Shown piece by piece: positions 41,605 through 56,881 of a stretch of DNA of 64,000 bases. The notes under the pieces were generated by a model. That model did not search any database and was not told the DNA's origin. It saw only the letters and a program-made list of their open reading frames with translations. Origin of the DNA: Gammaproteobacteria bacterium (GTDB lineage Bacteria; Pseudomonadota; Gammaproteobacteria; Steroidobacterales; JBCCMA01); contig JBGCFP010000040.1 of the NCBI GenBank assembly GCA_045107005.1, forward strand, positions 10,470 to 74,469, in the 5' to 3' direction. Every line of letters starts with the position of its first letter. Position 1 is the stretch's first letter. Made by a program: the position numbers and the translations under genes.

Positions 41605-42573
41605 CTAGTTGTCTTGCTCAACACCTTTCATGAACTTGAACAAATCGCTGTCGGTGGACAGCACCAGCGTCGTCCCCTCTTCCACCATGGATTGGTACGA
41701 CTGCATCGTGCGGGTGAATTCGTAGAAATCGACCGCCGCGCGACTCTGGTTGTACGCGCTGGCATAGATCTCAGTGGCCTTGGCGTCTGCGACACCCCGA
41801 ATTTCTTCAACCTCGCGATACGCCTCGGATTGGATCTTGTTCAGGTCGCGCACCCGGTTACCGCCGATACGCGCAGCTTCACCATTACCCTCTGACAGGA
41901 ATCGCTCCGCAATCTGGCGTCGCTCACTGATCATGCGATCGTAAATTTTAGGGCGCACGCTTTCGTTGTAGTTGATGCGCTTGAAGCGGATATCCAGCAG
42001 CTCGATACCAAAGACCTTCACTTTGTCGACGGCCGCTTTATAAATCTCAAGTTCGACCAACTCACGTCCTTTGGTGATCGGCACCAGCTCGCCAACGCCG
42101 ATGGCTTCTTCGTTACCCACCAGTACATTGTCGCGCAGCGGCACGCGATCCTTGGTGGTGCGAATAATCTCGATCAGCTCGTGTTTCGCCACGGCATTGC
42201 GCGTTTCACTGCCGAGAATGTCGTCCAGACGCGACTGCGCACTGCGCTCGTCACGCAGTCGCAAAAAGTACTGCAGCGGGTCGGTGATGCGCCAGCGGGC
42301 GAACAAGTCCACCGAGATGTACAGCTTATCCTTGGTCGGCATGTCGGACGAGGCGCCGTCCCACTCCAGAACCCGCTTGTCGATCGGGTTGGTTTCCTGG
42401 ATGAACGGTTTCTTCAGCTTCAGGCCTGCCGTGGTCACCGGCTCGCCAACGGGCTTACCAAATTGCGTGACAATCACCTGCTCGACTTCGTGCACCGTAT
42501 AGACGGAGTTAAACAGCAACAGGACCAATAGAAACAGAGCAATGATGCCGATCATTTTCTTACCCTGACTCAT
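41605..42573 (-). CDS. hflC: FtsH protease modulator HflC (SPFH domain)
   Basis: An N-terminal TM helix followed by VHEVEQVIVTQFGKPVG and an SPFH/band-7 body. It has an ATGA overlap with hflK. Confidence 0.88.
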   Translation of the reverse strand: MSQGKKMIGIIALFLLVLLLFNSVYTVHEVEQVIVTQFGKPVGEPVTTAGLKLKKPFIQETNPIDKRVLEWDGASSDMPTKDKLYISVDLFARWRITDPLQYFLRLRDERSAQSRLDDILGSETRNAVAKHELIEIIRTTKDRVPLRDNVLVGNEEAIGVGELVPITKGRELVELEIYKAAVDKVKVFGIELLDIRFKRINYNESVRPKIYDRMISERRQIAERFLSEGNGEAARIGGNRVRDLNKIQSEAYREVEEIRGVADAKATEIYASAYNQSRAAVDFYEFTRTMQSYQSMVEEGTTLVLSTDSDLFKFMKGVEQDN

Positions 42574-43646
42574 TGTCCTACTCCTTTGGTGCCGTCCAGA
42601 TTGAGCAGCGGCAGAATGCCCTGCGTCTCATCATCGACGATCACTTTTGATTTCAGTTGCGGCATGACTTCCTGCATTGTCTCGATATAGATTCGGCGCT
42701 TGGTAACCTCGGGTGCTTTCAGGTACTCGGCGAACAGCGAGTTGAAGCGTGCCGCGTCGCCCTCTGCCTCGTTAATGCGTTTGAGCCGATAGCCATCCGC
42801 CTCGCGGATACGTTGATCTTTCTCGCCCTCCGCCAGCGGAATCACGCGGTTGTAATCGCGTCGCGCTTCGTTAATCAGCTTTTCCTTTTCCTGCTGCGCC
42901 TGGTTCACTTCGTTAAACGACGCTTGCACCGGTTTGGGCGGGTTGATGTTCTTGAGCTGCACCTGATCGATGCTGACGCCCATCTCGTATTTAATCGCCA
43001 GCGCCTGCATTTTGACGAGGGCTTCGGATTCAATGTCCTGACGCCCGACGGTAATCACTTCATCCACGGTTCGGTCGCCCACCACTTCGCGCATCACCGA
43101 TTCCGACACGTGACGCAGTGTGCCGCGCGGTTCGCGCACTTCAAACAAGAACTTGAACGGCTCGGCGATGCGGTACTGCACCACCCACTCCACGAGCGCC
43201 GCATTCAGGTCGCCGGTGACCATTTCCGTCTCCAGCCGGGCCTGACGCGCCGCATCGCGACCGCCGAAGCCAGGCGTCTGATAGATATCTCGTGCGCCCG
43301 GTGTGCCAAAACCGAACTCCTGCTTCAGTTGCCGTTTGACCGGCAACGTCGTCGCCACGTCGATGCCTAGCGGTAATTTAAAGTTCAAGCCAGGCTCAAC
43401 CACCTTCAAATACTTGCCAAAACGCTGGACGACAGCGACCGAGTCACTGGGCACGGTGTAACAAGCGGTATACAGGCCAAGGAGAATCACACCCACCAGC
43501 AGCATCGCCAAAGGTGCGCCGCCTCCCGGTAACAGGCGCTTGATGCGCAAACGTGACTGATTGACGATCGCCTCAAGCTCCGCGGGCGTCGTGGAGCGAG
43601 GGCCTCGAGGGCCTTTGCCTCGACCATTGTTGTTTTGCCATGACAT
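42570..43646 (-). CDS. hflK: FtsH protease modulator HflK (SPFH domain)
   Basis: MSWQNNNGRGKGPRGP, then a TM helix, then VPSDSVAVVQRFGKYLKVVEPGLNFKLP. This is the HflK layout. Confidence 0.88.
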   Translation of the reverse strand: MSWQNNNGRGKGPRGPRSTTPAELEAIVNQSRLRIKRLLPGGGAPLAMLLVGVILLGLYTACYTVPSDSVAVVQRFGKYLKVVEPGLNFKLPLGIDVATTLPVKRQLKQEFGFGTPGARDIYQTPGFGGRDAARQARLETEMVTGDLNAALVEWVVQYRIAEPFKFLFEVREPRGTLRHVSESVMREVVGDRTVDEVITVGRQDIESEALVKMQALAIKYEMGVSIDQVQLKNINPPKPVQASFNEVNQAQQEKEKLINEARRDYNRVIPLAEGEKDQRIREADGYRLKRINEAEGDAARFNSLFAEYLKAPEVTKRRIYIETMQEVMPQLKSKVIVDDETQGILPLLNLDGTKGVGQ

Positions 43647-43971
43647 AGCGTGATGTTCTCACCGTATTTAGAGGATTGGGACGACCGAATTTGGTCAAGT
43701 TTACTTTACTTTTAGAACGCCTGCTTAGGCGTTATGACGAGGTTGGGATATATTGTCCGCCATTGTGGTCTACAGGGCCAGAACACGTAGACAAACGTCC
43801 GGCAGCCAAACTCGGTCAGAGGCCCAACAATAACCTTAAACACTGCTCGAGTTTCTGCATCAAACCTAAGCTTGCACTATTCGTGAGATCTACCACTCTT
43901 GCGCCTGATTTTAGTGCGAGTCAGTCATTTCACATCAGCCGCACAGCTGTGCGCACGGCGGGGAGTTAAGT

Positions 43972-45600
43972 ATGGACAGGCGGGATTTTTTAAAAGTGAC
44001 CGGTGTAGGCGTAGGCGGACTCATGCTGCCAATCACCGGGCGACTGGTGGCAGCACAAGAGTTGATTTCGCCTGCCGATTTGAAACTCAAACGCAAACTG
44101 GCCGACGCGGCGCTCACTGCGGCCAAAAAAGCCGGTGCGAGCTACGCCGACGCGCGCATTGGACGCTACCTCAATCAGTTCGTCGTGACCCGCGAGATGA
44201 AGGTCCAAAACATCGTTAACACCGAATCCGCCGGTGTCGGCATTCGCGTGCTGGTCAACGATACCTGGGGCTTTGCGGCAACCAGCGACATGACGCCCAA
44301 AAAAGTGGCCGAAGCCGCGCGCAAAGCCGCCGCCATTGCCAAAGCCAACTCCAAGTTCCAGACCAACCCGGTGGTGCTCGCGCCGGTCAAAGGCGTCGGC
44401 GAAGTGTCGTGGAAAACGCCCATCAAGAAGAACGCGCTGGAGATTCCCATCGCGGACAAAGTGGATATGTTGATGGAGGTCAACAACGCGGCGCTGACCA
44501 ACGGCGCCGATTTCGTTAACTCCATTTTCTATCTGGTCAATGAGCAAAAATATTTCGCCAGCTCCGACGGCTCGTACATCGATCAGGACGTGCACCGGGT
44601 ATGGGCGCCCATGACCATTACCGCGGTGGATAAGGAAACCGGAAAATTCCGTACCCGCGCCGGCATCGGCGACCCCGTTGGTATGGGCTGGGAGTACTTC
44701 GACGGTAACGAGAAGGACAAAATTCAAGGCGTCACTACGTTGTACGGAAAGAGCTACGACATGGTTGAAGACGCCGTCAACGGCGCCAAGCAAGCCCGCA
44801 AGAAACTGACCGCGCGTTCGGTCAAGCCGGGACAATACGACCTGGTACTCGATCCGACGCATTTAATGCTGACCATCCACGAATCAGTCGGTCACCCGCT
44901 CGAGCTCGATCGCGTGCTTGGTTACGAAGCCAACTACGCCGGCACCAGTTTCGCGACACTCGACAAGTGGCGCAGTGGTGACTTCAACTACGGCAGTCCA
45001 GAGGTCACGCTGTTCGCGGACAAGACCCAGGAGGGCTCGGTCGGTGCAGTCGGTTACGACGATGAAGGTGTGCCAACCAAACGTTGGGATCTGGTGAAGG
45101 ACGGCGTACTGGTCAACTATCAGGCGATCCGCGATCAGGTGCACATCATCGACCAGAAAGAATCCCACGGCTGCTGCTACGCCGACAGCTGGTCCAGCGT
45201 CCAGTTCCAGCGCATGCCAAACGTGTCGTTGGCGCCGGGTAAAGAAAAATACAGTGCCCAGGACATGATCAAGGACGTCGAGGACGGCATTTATATTGTT
45301 GGTCGTGGCTCCTACTCGATCGATCAGCAGCGTTACAACTTCCAGTTTGGCGGTCAGCTGTTCTATGAAATCAAGGACGGCGAGATCACCGATCAGATTG
45401 AAGACGTGGCGTACCAGTCAAACACCCAGGAGTTCTGGAACGCCTGCACGAAGATTTGCGACGAAAGCGACTACCGCATTGGCGGCACGTTCTTCGATGG
45501 CAAGGGTCAGCCCCCTCAGGTCAGCGCCGTTTCGCACGGTTGCTCAACCACGCGCTTTGACGGCATCAACGTCATTAACACCGCGCGCAAACTCGGCTAA
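43972..45600 (+). CDS. TldD-family metallopeptidase with twin-arginine (Tat) signal
   Basis: MDRRDFLKVTGVGVGGLMLP is a Tat signal. The zinc motif HESVGHPLELDR (HExxxH) is present. GGGGAG Shine-Dalgarno sequence upstream. Confidence 0.88.
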   Translation: MDRRDFLKVTGVGVGGLMLPITGRLVAAQELISPADLKLKRKLADAALTAAKKAGASYADARIGRYLNQFVVTREMKVQNIVNTESAGVGIRVLVNDTWGFAATSDMTPKKVAEAARKAAAIAKANSKFQTNPVVLAPVKGVGEVSWKTPIKKNALEIPIADKVDMLMEVNNAALTNGADFVNSIFYLVNEQKYFASSDGSYIDQDVHRVWAPMTITAVDKETGKFRTRAGIGDPVGMGWEYFDGNEKDKIQGVTTLYGKSYDMVEDAVNGAKQARKKLTARSVKPGQYDLVLDPTHLMLTIHESVGHPLELDRVLGYEANYAGTSFATLDKWRSGDFNYGSPEVTLFADKTQEGSVGAVGYDDEGVPTKRWDLVKDGVLVNYQAIRDQVHIIDQKESHGCCYADSWSSVQFQRMPNVSLAPGKEKYSAQDMIKDVEDGIYIVGRGSYSIDQQRYNFQFGGQLFYEIKDGEITDQIEDVAYQSNTQEFWNACTKICDESDYRIGGTFFDGKGQPPQVSAVSHGCSTTRFDGINVINTARKLG

Positions 45601-45645
45601 GCCCGAACGCCAACGCACATAAACAAACAATCTTTAGGTGGAATC

Positions 45646-46974
45646 ATGGCCATACTGAGCAACAAACAAGCGAAGAAAATTCTGACCAAGGTGATCAAGC
45701 TGTCCAAAGCGGACGCCTGTGAAGCAAATCTTTCGGGCACCGTCGGCGGCAACATCCGCTATGCGCGCAACTCGGTGAGCACGGCAGGCGTAGTGAGCGA
45801 CACGACGCTCGGCGTGCAGTCCAATTTCGGCAAGAAGGTCGGCGTCGCAACGACCAACGAATTCGACGATGAATCATTGCTGCGCGTTGTGCGACGCTCT
45901 GAAGAGCTCGCGCAGTTGTCGCCGGAGAATCCGGAATTCATGCCGGTGCTCGGACCGCAAAAATACGTCGAGTCGAAGGGCTACGCGAAGTCGACGGCGG
46001 AGATAACGCCGGAAATGCGTGCGCAAGCGGCGCAAGACAGCATTGAGCCAAGCATGAAGAACGACGCAACCGCCGCGGGCTTCCTGACCGACAGCGCCGA
46101 CTTTGACGCAATGATGAACAGCGCCGGCCTCTACGCTTACAACACCAGCACCAGTGCCAACTTCACCGTCACCGTGCGCACCGACGACGGTACCGGGTCG
46201 GGCTGGGCCACGCTGGACGACAACGATATCAACCGTCTCGACACAGCGCGCGCCTCCAAAGTCGCCATCGACAAAGCCGTGATGTCGCGCGATGCCAAAG
46301 CGCTGGAACCGGGTAAGTACACCGTCATTCTCGAGCCCAACGCGCTGGCCTCGTTCATGGGCCAGATGGTGTTTGCGTTCGACGCCCGTCAGTCAGATGA
46401 AGGACGTACATTTTTGTCGAAAAAAGGCGGTGGCAACCGCATAGGCGAAAAAGTATTCGACGAGCGCGTCAATCTGTACGCCGACCCCACCGACTCGCGC
46501 GTGCCGACACGGCCGTGGGACGATTCGGGTCAGCCCATGAAACGCCTTGATATCGTCAAAGATGGCGTGATCAAGAATCTGTTCTACTCGCGCTACTGGG
46601 CCGAACAGCAAAAGGTGGCGGCCATTCCGCAGCCCAACAATCTGATTATGGAAGGCGGCAAGCGGTCGCTTGATGAAATGGTCGCCAACACCGATCGCGG
46701 GATCCTGGTGACACGCACCTGGTACATCCGCGCGGTCGATCCGCAGACGCAGCTCTACACCGGTCTGACCCGCGACGGCACCTTCTACATTGAAGAAGGC
46801 AAGATCAAGTATCCGGTCAAGAACTTCCGCTTCAATGAAAGCCCGGTGATCATGCTGAACAACCTTGAAGAGCTGGGCGTGCCGGAACGCGTTTCACTAT
46901 TCGGCTTCCCAGTGATGCTGCCGCCGGTCAAGGCTCGTGAATTCACGTTCACCAGCCTGTCCGACGCCGTTTAA
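45646..46974 (+). CDS. PmbA/TldE-family protein (no HExxxH, no obvious signal peptide)
   Basis: It has the TldD/PmbA-family C-terminal pattern (GILVTRTWYIRAVDPQT...TGLTRDGTFYIEEGKI) but lacks a zinc motif. This is what I would expect for the non-catalytic partner. Confidence 0.85.
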   Translation: MAILSNKQAKKILTKVIKLSKADACEANLSGTVGGNIRYARNSVSTAGVVSDTTLGVQSNFGKKVGVATTNEFDDESLLRVVRRSEELAQLSPENPEFMPVLGPQKYVESKGYAKSTAEITPEMRAQAAQDSIEPSMKNDATAAGFLTDSADFDAMMNSAGLYAYNTSTSANFTVTVRTDDGTGSGWATLDDNDINRLDTARASKVAIDKAVMSRDAKALEPGKYTVILEPNALASFMGQMVFAFDARQSDEGRTFLSKKGGGNRIGEKVFDERVNLYADPTDSRVPTRPWDDSGQPMKRLDIVKDGVIKNLFYSRYWAEQQKVAAIPQPNNLIMEGGKRSLDEMVANTDRGILVTRTWYIRAVDPQTQLYTGLTRDGTFYIEEGKIKYPVKNFRFNESPVIMLNNLEELGVPERVSLFGFPVMLPPVKAREFTFTSLSDAV

Positions 46975-46985
46975 GACCGCCCAAC

Positions 46986-47678
46986 GTGCGTCGACGGCGG
47001 TTTCTGCGTGCGGCGAGCTCAGCGCTCGCCGTCGCCTGCCTGCCGTCGACGCGCGGGACAGGTCCCTACGACTTCAGTTTCACTCGACTTCAGTACGAGT
47101 CAGGGGACTGGGACGTCGATGAGCGGATGCCGAACAATTTGCTCAATTCACTGGTGGAATACACGACCATTCGCGTCGACCCGCAAGAGCGGGTTGTTGC
47201 GCTGGCCGATCCCGCGATGCTGCAAGCGCCGTTTTGCTATTTGGCCGGCCACCGACTCGTGCAGTTTAACGAGGCCGAACGCGAGAACTTCGAGCGCTAC
47301 GTGCGCAGTGGCGGGTTTGTCTTCGTCGACGACTGCAATCACGATATCGACGGTTTGTTCGCGGTGTCTTTCGAAAAACAGATGCGCGAGATCTTTGGCA
47401 AGGACGCGCTGGCAAAGCTCCCGGACAATCATCCCGTTTACTCGTCCTTTTTCGAATTCGACGGTCCTCCAGCCACCAGTTTTGAACTCAACGGCTGGGG
47501 CGATGATCTGGTTCACGACTATCTGCGCGGCATCGATATCGGTGGCCGCACGGGCGTTCTGTACAGCAACAAGGACTACGGCTGCGAATGGGACTACGAC
47601 TACCGAAACAAACGCTGGCTGGCGCAAGACAATACCCGCTTCGGGGTCAACATTGTGCTCTACGCGCTGACTTACTGA
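46986..47678 (+). CDS. DUF4159 domain protein with Tat signal
   Basis: MRRRRFLRAASSALAVA is a Tat signal. FTRLQYESGDWDVDERMPNNLL...PFCYLAGH..FNEAERENFERYVRSGGFVFVDDC...GVNIVLYALT matches the DUF4159 pattern as I remember it. Confidence 0.8.
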   Translation: MRRRRFLRAASSALAVACLPSTRGTGPYDFSFTRLQYESGDWDVDERMPNNLLNSLVEYTTIRVDPQERVVALADPAMLQAPFCYLAGHRLVQFNEAERENFERYVRSGGFVFVDDCNHDIDGLFAVSFEKQMREIFGKDALAKLPDNHPVYSSFFEFDGPPATSFELNGWGDDLVHDYLRGIDIGGRTGVLYSNKDYGCEWDYDYRNKRWLAQDNTRFGVNIVLYALTY

Positions 47679-47691
47679 GGAAACGTATCGC

Positions 47692-48708
47692 ATGGCGGTG
47701 AACCCCATACTCAACGAGGCGGACGTCGCCGCGAAGGTCGCAGGGCTTGCCGACGTTCGAGAGGCGATAGGTCAGGTGATCGTCGGCCAGGCCGAGGTGG
47801 TCGAACACATGTTGATCGGGCTGCTCGCAGGCGGTCACTGTTTGATTGAAGGAGTACCTGGTCTCGGCAAGACGCTGCTGGTCAACAGTCTCGCGCGCGC
47901 CATGACGCTGAACTTTCGCCGTATTCAATTTACGCCCGATCTGATGCCCAGTGACGTTATTGGCACCGAAATTCTCGAAGAAGATCACGGCACCGGCAAG
48001 CGGTCCTTCAAGTTTCAGCCCGGGCCGGTGTTTGCCAATATTCTGCTGGCCGACGAAATCAACCGGACGCCGGCCAAAACGCAAGCGGCGCTGCTCGAGG
48101 CGATGCAGGAATGCTCGGTCACCTACGCCGGCGAAACGCACACATTAAATCCGCCGTTCTTCGTCCTGGCCACGCAGAATCCTTTGGAGCAGTCTGGCAC
48201 TTACGCCCTGCCCGAGGCACAGCTTGATCGCTTTTTGCTCCATATCGAGATCGACTACCCGACGCTCGACGAAGAAACCGAAGTGCTGCGCCGAACGACC
48301 GGAGCGAGCCCTGCGCCAATCAATAAAGTGATGTCTGCGGACGACGTCTTGGCACTGCAGGCGCTGACTCGACAAGTGTCAATTTCCGACGGACTGCTGC
48401 ACTACGTCACCCATCTGATCCGTGCGACTCGTCCGGGCAAAGACGCCGTGGGTGCGATTAGCGAATGGGTGAAGTGGGGCGCCGGTCCGCGCGCCGGCCA
48501 GGCACTGATCCTCGCGTCGAAGGGCCGCGCACTTCTGCACGGTCGCTACGCGGTGACCCGTGACGATTTACACGCCATGGTACTGCCCGTTCTGCGCCAT
48601 CGACTGATCCTGAATTTTCATGCCGAGGCCGAGCAAAAGCGCGTCGCCGACATCGTTGACGCACTGCTGACGCACTACCCGGCGCCTGACGACCCCATCG
48701 CGGGATGA
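47692..48708 (+). CDS. MoxR-family AAA+ ATPase
   Basis: Walker A LIEGVPGLGKT, Walker B ILLADEINRTPAKTQAALLEAMQE, followed by FFVLATQNPLEQSGTYALPEAQLDRF. Confidence 0.93.
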   Translation: MAVNPILNEADVAAKVAGLADVREAIGQVIVGQAEVVEHMLIGLLAGGHCLIEGVPGLGKTLLVNSLARAMTLNFRRIQFTPDLMPSDVIGTEILEEDHGTGKRSFKFQPGPVFANILLADEINRTPAKTQAALLEAMQECSVTYAGETHTLNPPFFVLATQNPLEQSGTYALPEAQLDRFLLHIEIDYPTLDEETEVLRRTTGASPAPINKVMSADDVLALQALTRQVSISDGLLHYVTHLIRATRPGKDAVGAISEWVKWGAGPRAGQALILASKGRALLHGRYAVTRDDLHAMVLPVLRHRLILNFHAEAEQKRVADIVDALLTHYPAPDDPIAG

Positions 48709-49628
48709 CGCGCCAGCGCCCCCTCGACCCGACAACGCTCGCCCGAATTCGCGATTTGAAATTGCTGGCCCGGGTGGTGGTCGACGGTGCCCTGCACGGA
48801 ATCCACACCAGTCGTCAACGTGGCGAAGGCATGGAGTTCTCCGAATACCGTCAGTACGAGCCCGGTGACGACCCGCGTCAGATCGATTGGAAACTTTACG
48901 CCCGCTCCGACAAGGTCTTCGTCCGCCAGTCCGAGCGCGAAAGCCATGTGCCGGTCTGGATCATCGTCGACACGAGCGCATCGATGGCGCAGCCCAGCGC
49001 CGATGTCAGCGACTGGACGCGGCTCGACTGCGCGCGCGCCCTGGCGGCCAGTCTGGCGTATGTCTGCCAACAACAGGGGGACGCGTTCGGGCTACTCAGC
49101 CTCAACGACACCAACCGATCCTACCTCCCGTGCCGCGATGATGACCGCCAGCTCGACCGATTCGTCGCCGCGCTGAATCGGCTCGACGCGCAAGGTCAGT
49201 GGCCCAACACGACGCAACTCGACGCGCTGTGGGATCAGCTTCAGGGGCCCGGACTGGTCGTTGTCATCAGCGATTTCCTGCAAGACAGTCACGAAATTGA
49301 GCAGCTCCTTGGCAAGCTTGCCGGGCAACGCAAGGAGGTGCTGACACTCCAACTGCTGACGCGAGAGGAAGTGACCTTCCCGTATCACGGCAACATTGCG
49401 TTTCGCGATCGCGAGACCAATGAACAGGTTTTCGCCGATGCCGCGTCGGTGCGCGAACGCTATCTGGGCGCACTTAAAAGAGCGCGGCGTCATTGGATTG
49501 CAACGCTCGCGGGCTTGAACATTCAGGATTTTCTGACGCTGATTGAGGAACCTCTGGACGATACGTTGCGCCACTTCCTGAAACACCGTCGGCGCTTCGA
49601 TCGATCGCTGTTGCGTGAGACTCACTAG
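48705..49628 (+). CDS. DUF58 (vWA-like) protein, MoxR partner
   Basis: GIHTSRQRGEGMEFSEYRQYEPGDDPRQIDWK is the hallmark DUF58 motif. It has an ATGA overlap with the MoxR gene. Confidence 0.9.
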   Translation: MTRQRPLDPTTLARIRDLKLLARVVVDGALHGIHTSRQRGEGMEFSEYRQYEPGDDPRQIDWKLYARSDKVFVRQSERESHVPVWIIVDTSASMAQPSADVSDWTRLDCARALAASLAYVCQQQGDAFGLLSLNDTNRSYLPCRDDDRQLDRFVAALNRLDAQGQWPNTTQLDALWDQLQGPGLVVVISDFLQDSHEIEQLLGKLAGQRKEVLTLQLLTREEVTFPYHGNIAFRDRETNEQVFADAASVRERYLGALKRARRHWIATLAGLNIQDFLTLIEEPLDDTLRHFLKHRRRFDRSLLRETH

Positions 49629-50737
49629 TGGGCGTTGGCTGGCCGGCCGCCTTGTCAGGGTTAGCAGCGCTACTGATTCCGCTGTTGATCCATCTGTTAC
49701 AGCGCGGCGAGCATCGTGTCGTCCATGTCGCCATCACACGGTTCGTACCCGAGCAGCAGCGGCTGCGTTGGCGGCGCCTCAGGCTTTCGCAACCGATACT
49801 GCTCGCCCTGCGCCTACTCTTGATTGGCCTTGCCGTACTGCTGTTGGCCGAGCCGTATTGGCGTATCGCGGACAGCACCGACACCGAGCGGGCGTGGACG
49901 CTGATCTCGCCTCAGGCCGAGTTTGCCCAAGCGGACGCCGGCAACGGTTCGCGCTGGCTGGCACCTGGCTTTCCGCTGGCGTCAGAACCGCGCCCACCGT
50001 GGCAACCCGGGCAGTTGTGGTCACTGCTCGATGCCGCTCATCTTGCGGCACCGGCTGGTGTGCCGCTCAAGGTCGTTACGCCAAGTGTCGCCGCCGAGTT
50101 CGCGGCTCGACGGGCGCAGGTACCGCGCTCGATCCAGTGGGTTGCGGCGCCATCGCGCGATGCAGAAATACCCGTTCGCGAACCCATCCGGATACGAATC
50201 TTCGCCGATGCGGATCGCCAGTCGGATGCGATGGTCATCGAGCAAGCGGTAGAAGCGTGGCGCGATGCCGGCATCGACGTCGCGACGCAACGGATTTCCC
50301 GTCTACCGCTGGACGCATCGTCCGCCGCTACCGTTTGGTTAAGCCGCCAACCCGTTCCGCAGGACAGCGGCGTCTGGCTGACAGATCAAAACCCGAGCAG
50401 TGACGCGCTGCCCGTTGCCTTCGACACCGACGGTCGCGCGTCGCTGCGCAAGGCCGTAACGGGCGCCCGTGAGGTGATCTACTTTGCAGCGGGACTAAGA
50501 GCAACCGACAAGCACGTCAGCGACGCCTCATTTGCGTTGCGATTGCTGCAAAGCCTGCAGTCGGGGGCGATGCAGACGCCACCCGCCGATTACCCCGTCA
50601 GCCTTTCGGCGCTCACGCCGTCCGCCGACAGCACACAAGCGCAACGAAGGCCGTTGCTCCGGCTGTTCCTTTCGTTAATTCTGATCACCGCGCTGATGGA
50701 GCGGATGCTCAGCGCCTACCTGATGCGCGCGACGTGA
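49628..50737 (+). CDS. membrane protein with BatA-type N-terminal double-transmembrane domain
   Basis: WPAALSGLAALLIPLLIHLLQR ... LLALRLLLIGLAVLLLAEP looks like an aerotolerance-regulator N-terminal domain (TIGR02226-like). There is also a C-terminal TM helix. The GTG start overlaps the DUF58 stop (TAGTG). Confidence 0.75.
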   Translation: MGVGWPAALSGLAALLIPLLIHLLQRGEHRVVHVAITRFVPEQQRLRWRRLRLSQPILLALRLLLIGLAVLLLAEPYWRIADSTDTERAWTLISPQAEFAQADAGNGSRWLAPGFPLASEPRPPWQPGQLWSLLDAAHLAAPAGVPLKVVTPSVAAEFAARRAQVPRSIQWVAAPSRDAEIPVREPIRIRIFADADRQSDAMVIEQAVEAWRDAGIDVATQRISRLPLDASSAATVWLSRQPVPQDSGVWLTDQNPSSDALPVAFDTDGRASLRKAVTGAREVIYFAAGLRATDKHVSDASFALRLLQSLQSGAMQTPPADYPVSLSALTPSADSTQAQRRPLLRLFLSLILITALMERMLSAYLMRAT

Positions 50738-52968
50738 CCACTGAAACGGGACGTCTTGCGGAGCTCGCCGCACGGGTGGTTCGCCAGCGGCGAGTCGCTG
50801 GCGCGTTGATCGTTGGTGTCCTGGTTCTCACCGGCGTGGCGCTGAGCCAGTCGGTGGCACCGGTCGCCGTGCGGTTGGCGGTCGGATTGGGCGTGCTGGT
50901 CCTGGGTGGCTGGTTACTGCGTCGCACGCGTCTCGACGGCGCCGCGAGCGCCACTGACTACGCGCGTCATCTGGACGCCATCGAGCCGTCACTGCAGGAC
51001 AGTTGCGAACTGTTGCTCAGGGATCGCTCGCAATTGACCGGATTGGCTGCACTGGCCCATGAGCGCGCGGCCAGCCAGTTTCAGGCTTTGGATCAGGACG
51101 GCGGACTTGCGTCGACGCTGCCGCCCTTCCCCTGGTCCTACGTTGCGGCCGCTGGTGGCACCGCCGCTGTGGTGTCGACGTTAAGCTTGCTGTGGTCGGC
51201 GACCGAAACGGTCGACGACCGTGACTCAATTGTTCGCCCGCGTATTGCGTCAGCGACCGTCACACTGGCGCCCCCTGCCTATCTCGATCTGGCCAACTCG
51301 CGAACGCGCCAACTCGATTTTTCGACCGTGGAGAACGCGCAAGTGCAGTGGCGCCTGGAGCTCGATCGATCGGCGGAACAGGTTGCACTGCTCTTCCACG
51401 ACGGGGAGCGACTGGCACTGACCGGCGCATCGAGCCGGCGCTGGGAATCTTCGTCGTGGTCCGCGCGCTCCACCGTTTACCAGGTCATGGTCGACGGTGA
51501 GGAAACGCCCATCAGCGTCCACCGGATCGACGCCATCGTGGATCAGGCGCCGGTACTTACCGTCGAGTCTCCCGACGTTTCCCTGTTGACGTTGGCCGCA
51601 GATGCCGATAGCGCCCAGCTCGCACTGACATTCCGTGCGCAGGACGATCATCGAGTGGTGGGTGCCGTGGCCAAGGTAACGCTGGCCCGCGGAAGCGGCG
51701 AGCAAGTCCGGTTTCGAGAGCAGGATTTCCCACTTGACGTCACGTTCAGCGATGACGCCAGGAGCATTAGCGTCGATCAATCCATTGATCTCATCGAACT
51801 GGGGATGACACCCGGCGATGAGCTGTATCTGTTCGCTCAGGTCACCGACAACGAACCCAACGAACCCAACATTGGCGTGAGCAGTACGTTTATCGTGCGC
51901 TGGCCAGGCGAAGACGCGGATGCCGAGCTGACCAAGGCCACCGTTGCGGTGTCGGTACTGCCCGAATTTTTCCGCAGCCAGAGGCAGATCATCATCGACA
52001 CGGAAAAACTGCTGCGCGACCGACCCAAGCTGGAGGAATCGGAGTTTGCGCAACTGGCGCAGACGCTCGCCATCGATCAGAAACTCCTGCGCTTGCGCTA
52101 CGGCCAATACCTCGGCGAGGAAGACGACAGCGGCATCGGTGCCGGTGCAACCCGTCCTGTCGCAACGGATGACGACGATCACGACGAAAACGAGGAAGAA
52201 CACGAAGACCACGACGAGCACGAGGCACACGAAGAGCAACAACAATACGACCTGCACGATGAGCACGATCACGCTGGCCACGCTGACGAATCGTTCCCGT
52301 CCGACAAGCCGGTCACAGGCGATGCCGATGCCGCGATTGCGCCGTACGCTCATTTTCATGACCGAGCCGAACAGTCCTCGTTATTCGACCTCAATACGAT
52401 ACAGCTGTTGCGCGCGGCGTTGTCCAACATGTGGGATGCCGAACTGCAACTGAGGCTGGCCCAACCGCAACCCGCGCTGCCCTTTGAATATGAAGCACTC
52501 AAGTACATCAAAGCGGTTCAGCAAGGACCGCGTATCTATCTGCGCAGAGCCGGGTTTCGACCAACGCCGATCGACGAGGCGAGACGCTTGACCGGCGATC
52601 TCGATGAAATTGTCGAGCGCCCGGTGGAACACAGCGTCGCGTCGGCCGGCGAGCAGCAGCAGATGCGTGAGTTGGCGAGCGAACTGGTGCGCGTTGTTCC
52701 GAGCGCTGAGCGCATTGACGAAACACTCGCAGCGCTGGTCCCCGGCATTCGCACGCGCGCGGCGAGCGAAGCCACCTGGCTCCCTCTGCTCGAGGCCTTG
52801 CAGCGATTCGACGCGGACCGGCTGTGCGCAGACTGCCGCACGCAGTTGGTCGCTGCGCTGTGGCGATCACTCACCCCGACACTCGCCACGCCAGGTGCCG
52901 TGGACGCCGCGCCGCATCCGGTGGAAGAGGCGTATCGCCAGCGCCAGACGCAGGTCAAGTCACCGTAA
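50734..52968 (+). CDS. large membrane-anchored protein of unknown function with His/Asp/Glu-rich tract (possibly DUF4175-like)
   Basis: 744 aa with two N-terminal TM helices (ALIVGVLVLTGVAL, LAVGLGVLVLGGWLL). A beta-rich middle region follows. The acidic/His tract is DDDDHDENEEEHEDHDEHEAHEEQQQYDLHDEHDHAGHADE. GTGA overlap with the upstream gene. Confidence 0.7.
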   Translation: MTTETGRLAELAARVVRQRRVAGALIVGVLVLTGVALSQSVAPVAVRLAVGLGVLVLGGWLLRRTRLDGAASATDYARHLDAIEPSLQDSCELLLRDRSQLTGLAALAHERAASQFQALDQDGGLASTLPPFPWSYVAAAGGTAAVVSTLSLLWSATETVDDRDSIVRPRIASATVTLAPPAYLDLANSRTRQLDFSTVENAQVQWRLELDRSAEQVALLFHDGERLALTGASSRRWESSSWSARSTVYQVMVDGEETPISVHRIDAIVDQAPVLTVESPDVSLLTLAADADSAQLALTFRAQDDHRVVGAVAKVTLARGSGEQVRFREQDFPLDVTFSDDARSISVDQSIDLIELGMTPGDELYLFAQVTDNEPNEPNIGVSSTFIVRWPGEDADAELTKATVAVSVLPEFFRSQRQIIIDTEKLLRDRPKLEESEFAQLAQTLAIDQKLLRLRYGQYLGEEDDSGIGAGATRPVATDDDDHDENEEEHEDHDEHEAHEEQQQYDLHDEHDHAGHADESFPSDKPVTGDADAAIAPYAHFHDRAEQSSLFDLNTIQLLRAALSNMWDAELQLRLAQPQPALPFEYEALKYIKAVQQGPRIYLRRAGFRPTPIDEARRLTGDLDEIVERPVEHSVASAGEQQQMRELASELVRVVPSAERIDETLAALVPGIRTRAASEATWLPLLEALQRFDADRLCADCRTQLVAALWRSLTPTLATPGAVDAAPHPVEEAYRQRQTQVKSP

Positions 52969-54737
52969 TGCAGTGGCCGACGACAATTGCGCTCGGCGGC
53001 GCCGCATTGCTGGCGATCGTCTGTTTGGTGCAGATCAGCGCGCTGCGCCAATCCAACCGACAGACCGTCCAAGTGTGGATAGCCGCCGGTTTGAACATCT
53101 TGTTTGCGACCGCTCTTTGGCTGTTTTTGTGGCCGCCCGCGACGACGCAAACCCAAACAGAGGTGATCGTGCTGACGCCGTCGGCGACGACCGCGCAGCG
53201 CGCCCGCGCAAGGCGCGCTCGACACGCCGTTGCCCTTGGCGCTGTAACACTGACCGAAGGAGAACAGCGGAACATCACACGCATCACCGATCTCGCTGGC
53301 ATCGAAACCCTGTTTGGCAGCGTCGCGACGCTGCGTGTCCTGGGTGCCGGCATCGCGCCGGATGAGTGGCCGGCCGTGCGCCCCTGGGAAGTCGAATTTT
53401 CGCCACCGACCGAAGCGTCCGGCGTGCGCTCCGCCGACTGGCCCCGCGAGCTTGAAACCGGCGCGCCGTTCACCGTAACCGGAGCGCTCAACGCCGCGAC
53501 GCCGCCCAACGTCAACGTGCACCTCCTCGATCCGGCAGGGGACATCGTCGCAACGGCACAAGCGGACGGACAGCAACGCTTCGAGCTCACGGACGCCACT
53601 CGCGCGCCCGGCAATTTTTTGTACGGCGTGCGGGTCGACGGGGGCGGTGGCGACATCATCGAACAGGTCACCATCCCGGTAAGCGTGCTGGAGCCCGAAC
53701 CGGTGCAACTATTGATGCTGTGGTCGGCACCGTCCTTTGAGGCGCGCTATTTGACCGACTGGGCGCGCAACGCAGGCGCCAGTATCGCCACCCGCATCGC
53801 CATCAGCCGCGATCGCTATCGCGAGCAGTTCGTGCGCGCTGCGCAGCGGTCGCTGACGACCATAACGCCAGCCATCGTCGCCGGGTTTGATGCCGTACTG
53901 CTCGATGCGCGCAGTTGGTCGGCGTTGAGCGGACCGGAACGCGACTCGCTGATTCGATCGGTTCGCGAAGACGGTCTGGGCATTCTGATGCTGGTGCCAC
54001 GCCTGGCGGATCTCGACGCGCCCGCCAGTGAATTTCCCGGACTGCGGATTGGCCCGGGCGGCGCTTCGTCGCTCGCGCTGGATCTGACCGCCACCGTAAC
54101 GCGCGGCGAAATTGCGCTCGCGTCACCGGAAACCACGCTGATTGAAAGCGGTATCGGTGAACCGCTGGCTGGCTTTCGCCGCGCTGACAGCGGCCGCTTT
54201 GGCATCACCCTCGTGACCGACAGCTATCAATTGGTGACGTCAGGACAGGCGGCGACGCATGCACAATATTGGCAATCGTTGATTGACGGCATGGCGCCCG
54301 GTGAGCCGACCCTGACGATGGACGTTCAGCCGGTGCGGCCCGTCGCCAACAAGCGCACCGCGCTGTGTTTTCGCGGCACCGACTTACCCGGCTCGGCGTC
54401 GTTGCGCAACACGGCGCAGAACGCGCAACAGATTCGGCTTGTCACACAAGCCCTGCACCCTGGCGAACGCTGCGGCTACTGGTGGCCGGCCCGCGTCGGC
54501 TGGCACCGCGTGAATGTGGGTACGTCGACCAAGCATGTTTACGTGCACGCCGAACAGGACTGGCGGGTGGCCCGCGATGCGACATCGGCGGTTGCCACAT
54601 CCTTGATCGCCAACGGCGACGTGACACAACGCACGCAAGAGCAAAGGGTAACCAGCGTCTGGTCCAGAGTACCGTTTGCGATTGGCGCTCTGCTGATCGG
54701 TAGCTGGCTGTGGTGGGAGCAAAAAAACCGCGGCTAG
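52968..54737 (+). CDS. membrane protein of unknown function, middle region reminiscent of GATase1/ThuA-like domains seen in Bat-type proteins
   Basis: The ATG at 52968 (MQWPTTIALGGAALLAIVCLV) overlaps the upstream stop (TAATG). There are N-terminal TM helices and a C-terminal TM helix (PFAIGALLIGSWLWW). The segment VQLLMLWSAPSFEARYL...GFDAVLLD...VREDGLGILMLV is present. Confidence 0.7.
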   Translation: MQWPTTIALGGAALLAIVCLVQISALRQSNRQTVQVWIAAGLNILFATALWLFLWPPATTQTQTEVIVLTPSATTAQRARARRARHAVALGAVTLTEGEQRNITRITDLAGIETLFGSVATLRVLGAGIAPDEWPAVRPWEVEFSPPTEASGVRSADWPRELETGAPFTVTGALNAATPPNVNVHLLDPAGDIVATAQADGQQRFELTDATRAPGNFLYGVRVDGGGGDIIEQVTIPVSVLEPEPVQLLMLWSAPSFEARYLTDWARNAGASIATRIAISRDRYREQFVRAAQRSLTTITPAIVAGFDAVLLDARSWSALSGPERDSLIRSVREDGLGILMLVPRLADLDAPASEFPGLRIGPGGASSLALDLTATVTRGEIALASPETTLIESGIGEPLAGFRRADSGRFGITLVTDSYQLVTSGQAATHAQYWQSLIDGMAPGEPTLTMDVQPVRPVANKRTALCFRGTDLPGSASLRNTAQNAQQIRLVTQALHPGERCGYWWPARVGWHRVNVGTSTKHVYVHAEQDWRVARDATSAVATSLIANGDVTQRTQEQRVTSVWSRVPFAIGALLIGSWLWWEQKNRG

Positions 54738-54759
54738 TCGTCCGGATTCCGGCGACGAC
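54737..54759 (+). terminator. weak candidate hairpin at the operon end
   Basis: gtcgtccggattccggcgacgac has 6 perfect outer base pairs plus an imperfect inner stem. There is no clear T-run (cggtttc follows). Confidence 0.3.
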
Positions 54760-54764
54760 CGGTT

Positions 54765-55058
54765 TCAGGAAACGTCAGCGAAGTTCCTCTCGCACTTGGG
54801 GCAACTCGATTCTTTGAACAGCGGACCATAGAGCGTCGCGTCCAATGTCGCCATCCACATCCACCGCGCTTTGCAAGACGGGCAAACCAGACCGGCCAAC
54901 GCCAGCACGTAACCCGCCGCCGCGATGATAGTGCCAACCGTCCACGATATGCCCAGTTGTTCGAACAGGGGCAACACGCTACCCGCAATCATCAGCAGCG
55001 CCGCAAGGACCAGTTTCCAGACTTGTCCGCTGTGTCGGATCACTGAATTGTTCATCAT
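54765..55058 (-). CDS. small membrane protein with C-terminal zinc-ribbon-like CxxC pairs
   Basis: 97 aa with two hydrophobic helices, then CPSCKARW ... CPKCERNF. Confidence 0.5.
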   Translation of the reverse strand: MMNNSVIRHSGQVWKLVLAALLMIAGSVLPLFEQLGISWTVGTIIAAAGYVLALAGLVCPSCKARWMWMATLDATLYGPLFKESSCPKCERNFADVS

Positions 55059-55091
55059 ATTTTTCTTCTTCTTGCTGTGATGGCTGGACGC

Positions 55092-55475
55092 TCAGAACAG
55101 ACGTAGCAAAGGCCCGACCAGCGAGCCGATGAGCAACGCCAGAGTCGCCAGCATTCCGGTCAGAAATCCGGCCCCGCGTGTGGCCGGGTCGGCCACGTAT
55201 GAGCGCTGAAACATAAAGCGACCGATGACATAAATGACGCCAAGCAAAGCGGCAATGCGCGCGTCGACAAACCAGCCAAACATCCACAACGCCGGAACGC
55301 TGACAACGAGCTGCTCGAGCGTGTTCTGCTGGACCCGAAAATGGCGTTCGAAGACAGGGTCGCCCGAGGTCGCTGGCGCCTTGATGCCAGACTCGCCACG
55401 GGCTTTGCCGACGCGCACGGTGAAATAGATGTATTGCAAGAGCATGAGCGCCGTGACGATCGCCACCCATTCCAT
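55092..55475 (-). CDS. MAPEG family membrane protein (microsomal GST-like)
   Basis: MEWVAIVTALMLLQYIYFTVRVGKAR...FERHFRVQQNTLEQL...YVIGRFMFQRSY is the MAPEG pattern. The ATG at 55475 gives the family-typical length of about 127 aa. The track ORF is extended upstream. Confidence 0.8.
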   Translation of the reverse strand: MEWVAIVTALMLLQYIYFTVRVGKARGESGIKAPATSGDPVFERHFRVQQNTLEQLVVSVPALWMFGWFVDARIAALLGVIYVIGRFMFQRSYVADPATRGAGFLTGMLATLALLIGSLVGPLLRLF

Positions 55476-55730
55476 TCTGTTGTCAAGCACGCAGGCCTCC
55501 AGGGCAAAGATCCAGTAGTCGTGGAGTATAGCGGCACGGCCGTCGCCGCGTATCACATTGCGAGAACAATTTGCCGAGCGTTCGATCCCGCGCGCGACCC
55601 GTGTGGACCGGTTCTGATCCGAGCGCCGGGAAACAAAAGGAAACAGGATAGCGAAGGCGCGCTCTGGACGCGCTGTCAGCGGGCATTTATCTGGAATTAG
55701 CCGGTCATAGGGGTCTGAAAAGCGACATCG

Positions 55731-55759
55731 ATGCGCCATCAACCAAGGAAATGGCGCAT
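55731..55759. promoter_or_regulatory. 9-bp perfect inverted repeat upstream of the RND operon (candidate operator or 5' UTR hairpin)
   Basis: ATGCGCCAT-caaccaaggaa-ATGGCGCAT, ending 41 nt before the ATG at 55800. Confidence 0.3.
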
Positions 55760-55799
55760 AATTGATGAGCTAAACCCCTTAAACACCTGAGACGATTGC

Positions 55800-56879
55800 A
55801 TGAAATCACTGGCGGTTATTGTTGTTTTGCTCGTGGCTGGCGCGGGCATTTACTGGAGCGCGACGCAAGACTCCAGCAGCACCCCCACAAGTGAGCGCCG
55901 CGGGCCGCCCGGGGGCTTTGGCAAGAAGCGGACGGTCCCCATTACTGTGGCCGACGTGATCAACCGGCCATTTGCGGATCAGGTTGAAGCCATCGGCACT
56001 GCTCGCGCCACCGAATCGGTCATCATCACGGCCAAGGTGACGGACAAGATTTCCAGCATCAATTTTGCCGACGGCGCGCGAGTCGAGAAAGGTGCGCTTC
56101 TGGTCGAGCTGACCAACGATGAGCAGGCGGCCCAGCTGGCCGAAGCCAAAGCCGATCGTGACGAGGCTCGCGCCCAACTCAAGCGCCTGGAAGAGCTGGT
56201 GCCCAAAAATACGGTCGCAGCGTCTCAGGTGGACGAATCCCGAGCGCGCTTCTCGATCGCCAATGCCCGACTCGAAGGTATCGTCGCGCGGCTCAAGGAC
56301 CGGGTGATTCGTGCGCCGTTTGCCGGCGTGCTGGGATTTCGCGAAATCAGCCCCGGTACGCTGGTGACCCCGGGCACGCGCATTACGACGCTGGACGACG
56401 TATCGACGCTGAAACTGGATTTCGCGGTACCGGAACTGTTCCTGGGCGCCATCGACATTGGCGATGCCGTGACCGCGTCGAGCCCGGCCTATCGCAAGGA
56501 GCAGTTCAGCGGCACGGTGACCGGTATCGATTCCCGAGTCGACGAGATCACACGCTCTGTCACCATCCGCGCGCTGCTGCCCAATGATCGCGGCGCGCTG
56601 CGCCCGGGCATGTTGCTCACTGTTGAATTGAAAACGGCTGAGCGCACGGCGCTTGCAGTGCCGGAAGCCTCGGTGATTCCCGTCGATCGCGAAGCCTACG
56701 TCTTTGTGATTGGCACCGATAACGTGGCCGAGCGGCGCACTGTCACAACAGGACAGCGCAGCGACGGCATGATCGAGATTCTCAGCGGCCTTGAGGCGGG
56801 TGAACGCGTCGCCGTGCTCGGCCTCGTCAGTCTGCGCAACGGCGTACCGGTGGTGATCAACGAGCCGGCAGGCGCCTGA
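55800..56879 (+). CDS. RND efflux periplasmic adaptor (membrane fusion protein)
   Basis: An N-terminal TM/signal, a coiled-coil hairpin (AQLAEAKADRDEARAQLKRLEEL), and IRAPFAGVLG. Confidence 0.9.
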   Translation: MKSLAVIVVLLVAGAGIYWSATQDSSSTPTSERRGPPGGFGKKRTVPITVADVINRPFADQVEAIGTARATESVIITAKVTDKISSINFADGARVEKGALLVELTNDEQAAQLAEAKADRDEARAQLKRLEELVPKNTVAASQVDESRARFSIANARLEGIVARLKDRVIRAPFAGVLGFREISPGTLVTPGTRITTLDDVSTLKLDFAVPELFLGAIDIGDAVTASSPAYRKEQFSGTVTGIDSRVDEITRSVTIRALLPNDRGALRPGMLLTVELKTAERTALAVPEASVIPVDREAYVFVIGTDNVAERRTVTTGQRSDGMIEILSGLEAGERVAVLGLVSLRNGVPVVINEPAGA

Positions 56880-56881
56880 TC

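Follow-up and report, generated by a model that had tools for sequence, protein, structure and literature searches.

A conserved gene module joining a TldD/PmbA-type protease pair to a Bat-like MoxR gene set in Gammaproteobacteria and Bacteroidota

The DNA analyzed here is a stretch of 64,000 nucleotides (nt) from a metagenome-assembled genome (MAG) of the Gammaproteobacteria (contig JBGCFP010000040.1, forward strand), hereafter the window, numbered from its first letter. On its + strand, at 43972-54737, it carries eight co-directional open reading frames (ORFs) that encode a TldD-like and a PmbA-like protein, a DUF4159 protein, a MoxR-type ATPase, a DUF58 protein and three membrane proteins. 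These eight genes are one conserved module: many Gammaproteobacteria and Bacteroidota carry the same set and gene order as a separate unit. Judged from the protein sequences, the module probably constitutes a two-compartment envelope system. We give an even chance to the reading in which a TldD/PmbA protease, exported by the twin-arginine translocation (Tat) pathway and possibly accompanied by DUF4159, works with a membrane platform that is serviced from the cytoplasm by MoxR and DUF58. The genes are listed below with their lengths in amino acids (aa) and, in brackets, their family assignments.

43972..45600, + strand: gene 1, TldD-like catalytic metallopeptidase subunit with an N-terminal twin-arginine-type signal, 542 aa (PF01523, PF19290, PF19289)
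45646..46974, + strand: gene 2, PmbA/TldE-like partner, predicted non-catalytic, without signal peptide, 442 aa (PF19289, PF01523, PF19290)
46986..47678, + strand: gene 3, DUF4159 protein of a Cys/His-bearing subfamily, 230 aa, GTG start (PF13709)
47692..48708, + strand: gene 4, MoxR-type AAA+ ATPase, 338 aa (PF07726 AAA_3, 1.3e-62; PF17863 AAA_lid_2, 5e-16)
48705..49628, + strand: gene 5, DUF58 (vWA-like) protein, 307 aa (PF01882, 4.2e-45)
49628..50737, + strand: gene 6, BatA_N/TIGR02226 double-transmembrane protein, 369 aa, GTG start (PF07584, 1e-9; TIGR02226, 3.9e-13)
50734..52968, + strand: gene 7, divergent DUF4175-like membrane protein, 744 aa, GTG start (homology via relatives)
52968..54737, + strand: gene 8, membrane protein of an unnamed family, 589 aa, always in last place in the module

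Conservation and layout of the eight-gene set

The survey took one genome per GTDB species, which was scanned with the gene 7 alignment, and recovered each locus with 10-kb flanks; the eight window proteins were then placed by tblastn on the best 80 of at least 595 confirmed loci. TldD and PmbA both lie beside the core in 51 of the 52 loci that have at least 7 kb of sequence upstream of the gene 7 homologue, and the single exception (L057) has only 679 bp downstream. Look-ups in the reverse direction, from TldD relatives in Thalassotalea, Aliikangiella, Woeseiaceae, Nevskia and one Joint Genome Institute (JGI) genome, recovered TldD-PmbA-DUF4159-MoxR-DUF58-BatA followed by two unannotated genes in all five cases, each time among different neighbours. 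Given these two counts, the recurrence of the gene set is far beyond chance. The original prediction, made from the window alone, had joined the TldD/PmbA pair to the MoxR cluster, and the survey extends this linkage to relatives in both Gammaproteobacteria and Bacteroidota.

The module is present in taxa that include Stenotrophomonas maltophilia, Xanthomonas hortorum, Lysobacter, Pseudoxanthomonas, Luteimonas, Dokdonella, Microbulbifer and Hydrocarboniphaga, and in the Bacteroidota Chryseolinea, Dyadobacter, Cyclobacteriaceae, Pedobacter, Segetibacter and Sediminibacterium. Rearranged versions, in Pedobacter, Segetibacter, Sediminibacterium and L076 (loci L052, L075, L076 and L078), have DUF4159 inverted and the TldD/PmbA pairs placed after gene 8; since the protease genes are still there, the association survives rearrangement. 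The layout of the protease genes themselves varies, with g1g2, g1g1g2, g1g2g1, g1g2g1g2 and up to three pairs observed (g1 and g2 being genes 1 and 2). Unequal numbers, two TldD to one PmbA, are frequent (L004, L010, L012, L015, L025, L078 and others). Cross-phylum identity reaches 62-79% for TldD, 55-67% for PmbA and 63-81% for DUF4159, as against 21-48% for genes 6-8. Some loci carry genes inserted between DUF4159 and MoxR, which are lineage-specific, and all-against-all clustering of 492 flanking ORFs for extra partners or regulators gave no family common beyond genus level. In a KSB1 contig (L086, 2040-11795), whose upstream end is cut, DUF58-BatA-g7-g8 is followed by the gene of a 989-aa Peptidase_M28 protein.

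Within the window, the eight ORFs, gap sizes and overlap strings reported in the original prediction are correct to the base. The first three intergenic gaps measure 45, 11 and 13 nt, and genes 4-8 are joined by four start/stop overlaps (ATGA, TAGTG, GTGA and TAATG), the ATGA between genes 4 and 5 being 4 nt long. We take the ATG at 52968 as the right start of gene 8 because it gives the deposited 589-aa protein and because family members align from residue ~2-10. The locus tags deposited in the window are AB8G17_06445 and AB8G17_06450. Terminator-like sites or hairpins were found in none of the intergenic gaps of the cluster; this includes the region before 46986, where the original prediction had reckoned with a terminator if TldD/PmbA were an independent unit. 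Neither the 45-nt gap between genes 1 and 2 nor the region 3' of the last stop folds any better than shuffled controls, and no Rfam family matches over 43000-55500. Shine-Dalgarno-like sequences stand 5' of gene 1 (GGGGAG) and within the 45-nt gap before gene 2 (AGGTGG).

The encoded proteins and their predicted topology

The following motifs of genes 1 to 3 bear on the protease pair, the DUF4159 protein and their export.

43978..43995, + strand: twin-arginine motif RRDFLK, aa 3-8 of gene 1
44878..44910, + strand: active-site helix HESVGHPLELD, aa 303-313 of gene 1
45496..45507, + strand: DGKG, aa 509-512 of gene 1, with the probable third metal ligand Asp509 and with Lys511, by motif correspondence
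46989..47006, + strand: twin-arginine motif RRRRFL of gene 3
47328..47351, + strand: DDCNHDID, aa 115-122 of gene 3, the same in all of 61 cluster-linked orthologues
47577..47600, + strand: YGCEWDYD, aa 198-205 of gene 3, with Y198, C200, E201, D203, Y204 and D205 invariant in 61 orthologues

Both protease proteins match PF01523, PF19290 and PF19289 above cut-off. In a phmmer alignment, gene 1 places HESVGHPLELD on HEAVGHGLEGD of Escherichia coli TldD (5nj5_A; 53.7 bits), and the relatives of gene 2 in the PDB are 1vpb, 6j6a and 5nj5_B. The HExxGH motif is present in all 74 TldD-like homologues and in none of the 62 PmbA-like ones; gene 2 itself, like those 62, lacks HExxxH. H303, E304, H308, E311, D313, D509 and K511 are invariant in 75 TldD-like sequences. 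The first five match E. coli His262, Glu263, His267, Glu270 and Asp272, while the equivalence of D509-G-K511 with Cys454-Gly-Lys456 comes from the motif pattern, as the phmmer alignment ends before that region. An Asp in place of the third-ligand Cys has been described in some TldD lineages (PMC5810440). By these motifs, gene 1 keeps every active-site element of TldD, with a probable Asp variant of the third ligand, and gene 2 is an inactive partner of the PmbA/TldE type. Neither reaches the NCBIfam equivalogs PRK10735 and PRK11040 (76.6 bits where 513 are required, and 56.7 where 438 are), and we therefore treat genes 1 and 2 as a separate subfamily and not as orthologues of E. coli TldD/PmbA. 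The E. coli enzyme is an obligate heterodimer forming a closed shell, in which a buried Zn/Fe site trims unfolded N-termini (PMC5810440). Unfolded peptides are its targets whatever their sequence, and it processes microcin B17 as well as the leaders of other peptides that ribosomes make and that are modified after translation (RiPPs). At two loci, genes of this group appear in pieces: the second TldD of S. maltophilia FW16 (L068:2962-4594), and the PmbA and DUF4159 genes of one MAG (L042:4265-6421), each match as two overlapping pieces, which probably reflect a frameshift or assembly error and not a real split of the gene.

The N-terminus of gene 1, MDRRDFLKVTGVGVGGLMLPITG, contains an S/T-R-R-x-F-L-K motif followed by a mildly hydrophobic, Gly/Ala-rich stretch. 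A twin-arginine-type motif stands in all 74 TldD-like homologues of both phyla (RRDFLK here, KRRDF in Bacteroidota), and every extra TldD copy retains it together with HExxGH. None of the PmbA-like homologues has a hydrophobic or twin-arginine N-terminus, so the PmbA-like subunit must either ride with TldD or stay behind.

Gene 3 matches PF13709 with an E-value of 2.7e-52 (177.7 bits against a cut-off of 25.9), and its relative in the PDB is 4i66 (Hoch_4089). From structure, Pfam assigns DUF4159 to the class-I glutamine-amidotransferase-like clan. Hoch_4089 lacks the DDCNHDID and YGCEWDYD motifs, and so do two distant DUF4159 proteins with solitary genes, of Gemmatirosa (L085) and of a Corynebacterium plasmid (L084). 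The pattern of the two motifs marks the gene 3 orthologues as a distinct DUF4159 subfamily, and the two motifs may form a putative metal or catalytic site specific to TldD-linked DUF4159. A search of plasmid records for annotated distant DUF4159 contexts yielded only these two solitary genes, and in the literature searched DUF4159 appears in a Pfam paper only.

Export signals of DUF4159 differ between lineages. The N-terminus of gene 3, MRRRRFLRAASSALAVA, fits the twin-arginine pattern, although the Pfam TAT_signal model gives no match to it. Over loci L002-L090, signals were sorted by regular-expression classes, corrected by eye for L021, L060, L081, L082 and L087. A full signal of the classical RR/KR type ending in AxA is carried by ~14 orthologues and the window protein; ~30, mostly Lysobacterales, have a single arginine in the same register (TRAEFLRL); and ~22, comprising all Bacteroidota, Nevskia and two unclassified MAGs, are signal-less, with an in-frame stop a few codons upstream. 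Side by side, the three states resemble a Tat signal that is being lost step by step. Of the twin-arginine signals that the original prediction had placed on both proteins, the one on the TldD-like protein is thus universal among the homologues, whereas the one on DUF4159 is lineage-variable.

The remaining motifs lie in genes 4, 5 and 7; confidence of structure models is given as the predicted local distance difference test (pLDDT).

47851-47874, + strand: Walker A motif GVPGLGKT of gene 4
48043-48057, + strand: Walker B motif LLADE of gene 4
48969-48983, + strand: DTSAS of metal ion-dependent adhesion site (MIDAS) type, aa 89-93 of gene 5
51967-51999, + strand: conserved motif FFRSQRQIIID of gene 7
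52096-52122, + strand: conserved motif RYGQYLGEE of gene 7
52168..52290, + strand: His/Asp/Glu-rich disordered tract of gene 7, aa 479-519, 41 residues, nearly all of them His, Asp or Glu, DDDDHDENEEEHEDHDEHEAHEE..., pLDDT <50
52351-52371, + strand: conserved motif HFHDRAE of gene 7

Neither the MoxR nor the DUF58 protein has a predicted membrane segment, and the match of gene 5 to PF13519 VWA_2 (1.1e-5) remains under the cut-off of that family. A second MoxR-DUF58 pair (45% and 32% identity) lies ~4 kb 3' of the module in Hydrocarboniphaga effusa (L029:18050-19478).

Genes 6, 7 and 8 encode membrane proteins whose large domains are predicted to face the periplasm, from the positive-inside rule as read from the sequences. 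Gene 6, with hydrophobic segments at aa 3-21, 56-74 and 343-361, consists of a BatA double-helix hairpin with an Arg-rich loop, an uncharacterized ~270-aa domain and a C-terminal membrane helix; Pfam and NCBIfam gave no vWA match to it. Gene 7 has no Pfam match, and PF13779 is silent even at E<=10. Of 20 aligned full-length homologues, five match PF13779 (best 1.4e-17), and NCBI gives the name DUF4175 to several homologues. Gene 7 is therefore regarded as a divergent DUF4175 relative that holds its label by transitive homology only. A word-indexed search returned more than 1,700 homologues. In the literature searched, DUF4175 occurs only where part of AdvA, a division protein of Acinetobacter, is annotated with it, which was judged uninformative for gene 7. 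The AlphaFold2 model of gene 7 (mean pLDDT 73) begins with two N-terminal helices and a conserved helical region; a third hydrophobic helix follows at 134-157, then a pair of Ig-like sandwiches at 171-390 and a conserved C-terminal helical bundle, which the disordered tract interrupts. This variable insert differs in length across the 20 homologues and keeps its richness in His, Asp and Glu (26-52%), and it immediately precedes a conserved HxHDxxE motif; that the two bind metal in the periplasm is a conjecture from their composition.

Gene 8 has no Pfam or NCBIfam family. Its own family comprises 2,039 clusters at 50% identity (E<=1e-3), all of them full-length at ~560-630 aa. In a weak AlphaFold2 model (pLDDT 61), alpha/beta and beta-sandwich domains lie between two helices at the N-terminus and one at the C-terminus; a profile search gave no solved relative, and a DUF4159-like identity of the alpha/beta domain was rejected as it found no support (hhalign E=0.18 over 19 columns). 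Of the family names originally proposed, those of genes 1-6 (TldD, PmbA, DUF4159, AAA_3, DUF58 and BatA_N) were borne out by Pfam and NCBIfam, while PF13779 on gene 7 was not borne out directly.

The surroundings of the module are of other kinds. Two SPFH/Band-7 genes with a 4-nt overlap lie upstream on the - strand (41605-43646), divergent from the module and separated from it by a 325-nt spacer with G+C content under the window average; the pair is not kept beside the module in other genomes. Within the spacer, just 5' of gene 1, a 97-codon ORF with a TTG start (43676-43969, + strand) has no family match and is probably not a gene. Downstream, at 55092-59983, a MAPEG-family gene on the - strand is followed on the + strand by genes for an HlyD-type adaptor and an AcrB-type resistance-nodulation-division (RND) pump, which are unrelated to the module.

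A proposed envelope system and its alternatives

The arrangement that we favour would begin in the cytoplasm, where the TldD-like and PmbA-like proteins would assemble into a hollow heterodimer as in E. coli TldD/E and acquire their metal. The folded complex would leave by Tat on the single signal of TldD, with PmbA as a 'hitch-hiker'. The Cys/His-bearing DUF4159 would join the exported complex, and since it would ride with TldD, its own Tat signal would be dispensable, which may be why that signal is intact, reduced to one arginine or absent according to lineage. The products of genes 6, 7 and 8 would build a platform in the inner membrane, with large domains in the periplasm and short loops in the cytoplasm, and MoxR-DUF58 would work on these loops with ATP, assembling, positioning or gating the platform. 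As its output, the system would processively trim or degrade polypeptides or peptides that are unfolded in the periplasm, a role in envelope protein or peptide homeostasis. The topology first proposed for the locus (protease in the periplasm, scaffold in the membrane and AAA+ protein in the cytoplasm) fits the Tat motif of all 74 TldD-like homologues, the helices of genes 6-8, and soluble MoxR and DUF58 proteins with intact motifs. A more specific form of this proposal, which we regard as doubtful, is a trans-envelope system in which TldD, PmbA and DUF4159 would make up a ternary complex, pass through Tat in the folded state on one signal and, in the periplasm, be held and regulated by the BatA_N/DUF4175-like/gene-8 platform, the state of which MoxR-DUF58 would set from the cytoplasm. 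The decaying DUF4159 signals would then be the evolutionary footprint of redundancy, and the result would be ATP-controlled proteolysis in the ATP-free periplasm.

Several observations weigh against the arrangement that we favour. We infer Tat export, the heterodimer, the contacts between protease, DUF4159 and membrane proteins, and the substrate, all from sequences and their comparison. The Pfam TAT_signal match of gene 1 stays under the gathering score (16.9 bits against 22.7, E=0.006), and the signal-less DUF4159 of Bacteroidota and Nevskia could equally be cytoplasmic there. Fold and profile searches with genes 7 and 8 found nothing specific, and their structure models gave generic Ig-like matches only, so that the platform idea is drawn from topology. 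The parts of the module are also separable: in one Bacteroidota locus (L088, 5987-14177) the BatA-g7-g8 trio stands alone, directly after a PadR gene and two genes of the PspC family (envelope stress), with no MoxR, DUF58, DUF4159 or TldD within 10 kb. Finally, MoxR-DUF58-BatA sets occur in other phyla without TldD/PmbA, and if this holds, the protease may be an accessory rather than part of the core.

The main rival, possible but rather unlikely in our judgement, is that MoxR-DUF58 acts as a cytoplasmic maturation chaperone. In the manner of CoxD/CoxE, NorQ/NorD and other MoxR-vWA pairs, its task before Tat export would be to load the metal site or remodel it, or to put TldD/PmbA together, perhaps with DUF4159; the membrane proteins would be the place at the translocase where the complex docks or is handed over, and not a working platform in the periplasm. 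It counts for this explanation that Tat carries proteins which fold and take up cofactors before they are exported. It also draws on the metal chemistry of the proteins: TldD is a Zn/Fe enzyme with its metal buried within the heterodimer in E. coli, DUF58 keeps its MIDAS motif, and the invariant Cys/His motifs of the cluster-linked DUF4159 look like a metal site. MoxR proteins have in general been described as chaperones for the maturation of dedicated, often metal-containing complexes (PMC3893208). However, a maturation role leaves unexplained why three membrane proteins with large non-cytoplasmic domains are conserved equally with the rest, and E. coli TldD/E needs no such helper.

Less probable again is a role in peptide scavenging or detoxification, in which exported TldD/PmbA would degrade imported or environmental peptides in the periplasm for nutrition or destroy ribosomally made peptide antibiotics, while the Bat-like part would serve general envelope maintenance and share no more than its regulation. 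The broad action of TldD/E on unfolded peptides and RiPP leaders suits such a role, as does the copy number of the protease genes (one to three pairs, or 2:1), which is typical of substrate diversification; and MoxR/DUF58 mutants of Rhizobium are reported to be impaired specifically on peptide-rich complex medium. Yet co-regulation alone is not expected to preserve adjacency across two phyla and through rearrangements, and the 492 flanking ORFs hold no conserved peptide transporter or TonB-dependent receptor.

It is very unlikely that the whole system faces the cytoplasm, with the RRDFLK N-terminus as a membrane tether or non-functional and the protease at the inner membrane face with MoxR. 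The sub-threshold TAT_signal score would agree with this, as would the PmbA-like subunit and the many DUF4159 proteins without a signal, but the S/T-R-R-x-F-L-K consensus is kept in 74 of 74 homologues from two phyla, ahead of a Gly/Ala-rich hydrophobic stretch, and many DUF4159 orthologues have classical signals ending in AxA. Least credible of all is a division into two independent adjacent units, a TldD/PmbA pair and a separate DUF4159-MoxR-DUF58-BatA operon: the only real gaps do flank genes 1-3, the PmbA-to-DUF4159 gap widens to ~90-130 nt in relatives, which with the lineage-specific insertions makes internal promoters possible, and the membrane trio can stand alone, but the neighbourhood survey, with its 51 of 52 loci and five of five look-ups including rearranged versions, largely refutes it, the gaps hold no terminator, and for S. 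maltophilia a single operon has been described that comprises the TldD genes and that of the MoxR-like ATPase (PMC7688217).

What the survey establishes is a discrete, widely distributed, uncharacterized module, probably of the envelope, that combines a Bat-like MoxR system with a TldD/E protease, and not a new category of system. Bat-like MoxR-DUF58-BatA clusters are widespread, and work since 1999 has connected them with aerotolerance, stress tolerance, virulence and envelope integrity. To our knowledge, no molecular client or mechanism has been agreed for them. The linkage conserved in two phyla ties one flavour of these clusters to an enzyme of understood chemistry and so offers a concrete partner to test, in bacteria that are tractable and of medical or agricultural relevance (Stenotrophomonas maltophilia, Xanthomonas, Lysobacter, Dyadobacter and Pedobacter). 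If our proposal is right, a protease would be added to the short list of Tat hitch-hiker complexes, and roles would be found for three families without a function, namely DUF4159, the DUF4175-like proteins and the gene-8 family with its ~2,000 clusters. The ternary trans-envelope form, if true, would be the first case of a Bat-like MoxR system whose client and output are defined.

Comparison with known systems

Genes 1 and 2 resemble E. coli TldD/TldE (PmbA; PDB 5NJ5; PMC5810440) in forming an adjacent paralogous three-domain pair, of which one subunit has HExxxH, the Glu/Asp residues and, by motif, x-G-K, and the other lacks them. On this common pattern, the same hollow-shell enzyme is predicted here, one that admits only unfolded chains. 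Similarity to the E. coli proteins is low (53.7 bits to TldD), the third ligand is probably Asp here and is Cys there, and the pair, unlike the E. coli genes, is linked genetically with DUF4159 and a MoxR membrane system. Given the conserved Tat signal on its TldD-like subunit, the enzyme is predicted to be periplasmic, unlike E. coli TldD/E. In the Tat hitch-hikers HybO/HybC (hydrogenase) and DmsA/DmsB (dimethyl sulfoxide reductase), one subunit bears the signal and its signal-less partner is co-exported after assembly. The signals of the TldD-like and PmbA-like proteins follow the same pattern, although those complexes are redox enzymes. The literature searched contained no report of a co-exported protease pair, and no paper linking DUF58 with PmbA or presenting TldD as a Tat substrate. 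TldD and 'twin-arginine' were mentioned together in a hot-spring metagenome study only.

With the Bat operon and its spirochaete relatives (Leptospira bat, Borrelia BB0170-BB0176) the module shares the succession of MoxR (AAA_3), DUF58 and then BatA double-transmembrane proteins. Bat operons contain vWA, TPR and SH3 proteins, whereas the module has DUF4159, the DUF4175-like protein, the 589-aa protein and TldD/PmbA instead. Pfam detected no VWA, TPR, SH3 or BatD family on the eight proteins apart from the sub-threshold VWA_2 on DUF58; with a MoxR-DUF58-BatA_N core that lacks these companions, the module is therefore Bat-like and not a Bat operon. The MoxR-vWA pairs CoxD/CoxE, NorQ/NorD and RavA/ViaA are similar in that an AAA+ MoxR protein and a MIDAS partner stand beside a dedicated metalloprotein client. 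They differ in belonging to other MoxR subfamilies, in serving cytoplasmic or membrane redox clients and in lacking BatA_N, DUF4175-like and DUF4159 proteins.

The MoxR-led genes RL3499-RL3502 of Rhizobium leguminosarum are reported to be needed for envelope integrity, morphology and growth on complex medium; RL3499 and RL3500 are related MoxR-DUF58 genes, the mutants of which are impaired only on complex TY medium (Vanderlinde et al. 2011, as cited in PMC5118466, PMC3893208 and PMC5700661). The group is described there as broadly conserved and placed with Bat-type regions (PMC5700661). It is the best phenotypic guide to a possible role of the MoxR part, with the difference that the descriptions in citing papers mention no TldD/PmbA.

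The closest counterpart is found in S. maltophilia. The original prediction knew of no described system of this composition; this needs qualifying, as orthologous S. maltophilia genes (NIPOLPBK_01784-01792) have been called a 'not-yet-characterized operon' in an RNA-seq study (PMC7688217), the only mention in the literature searched. That study gives no function, localization or comparative analysis for the operon; it reports two TldD genes, a putative protease, a MoxR-like ATPase, a membrane protein and three hypothetical proteins, and down-regulation of some of the genes in biofilm in all seven isolates (PMC7688217). By content the cluster is orthologous to the module described here, its gene list agreeing with the g1-g1-g2-g3...g8 layout of our S. 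maltophilia locus (L068), and it numbers nine genes because TldD is duplicated.

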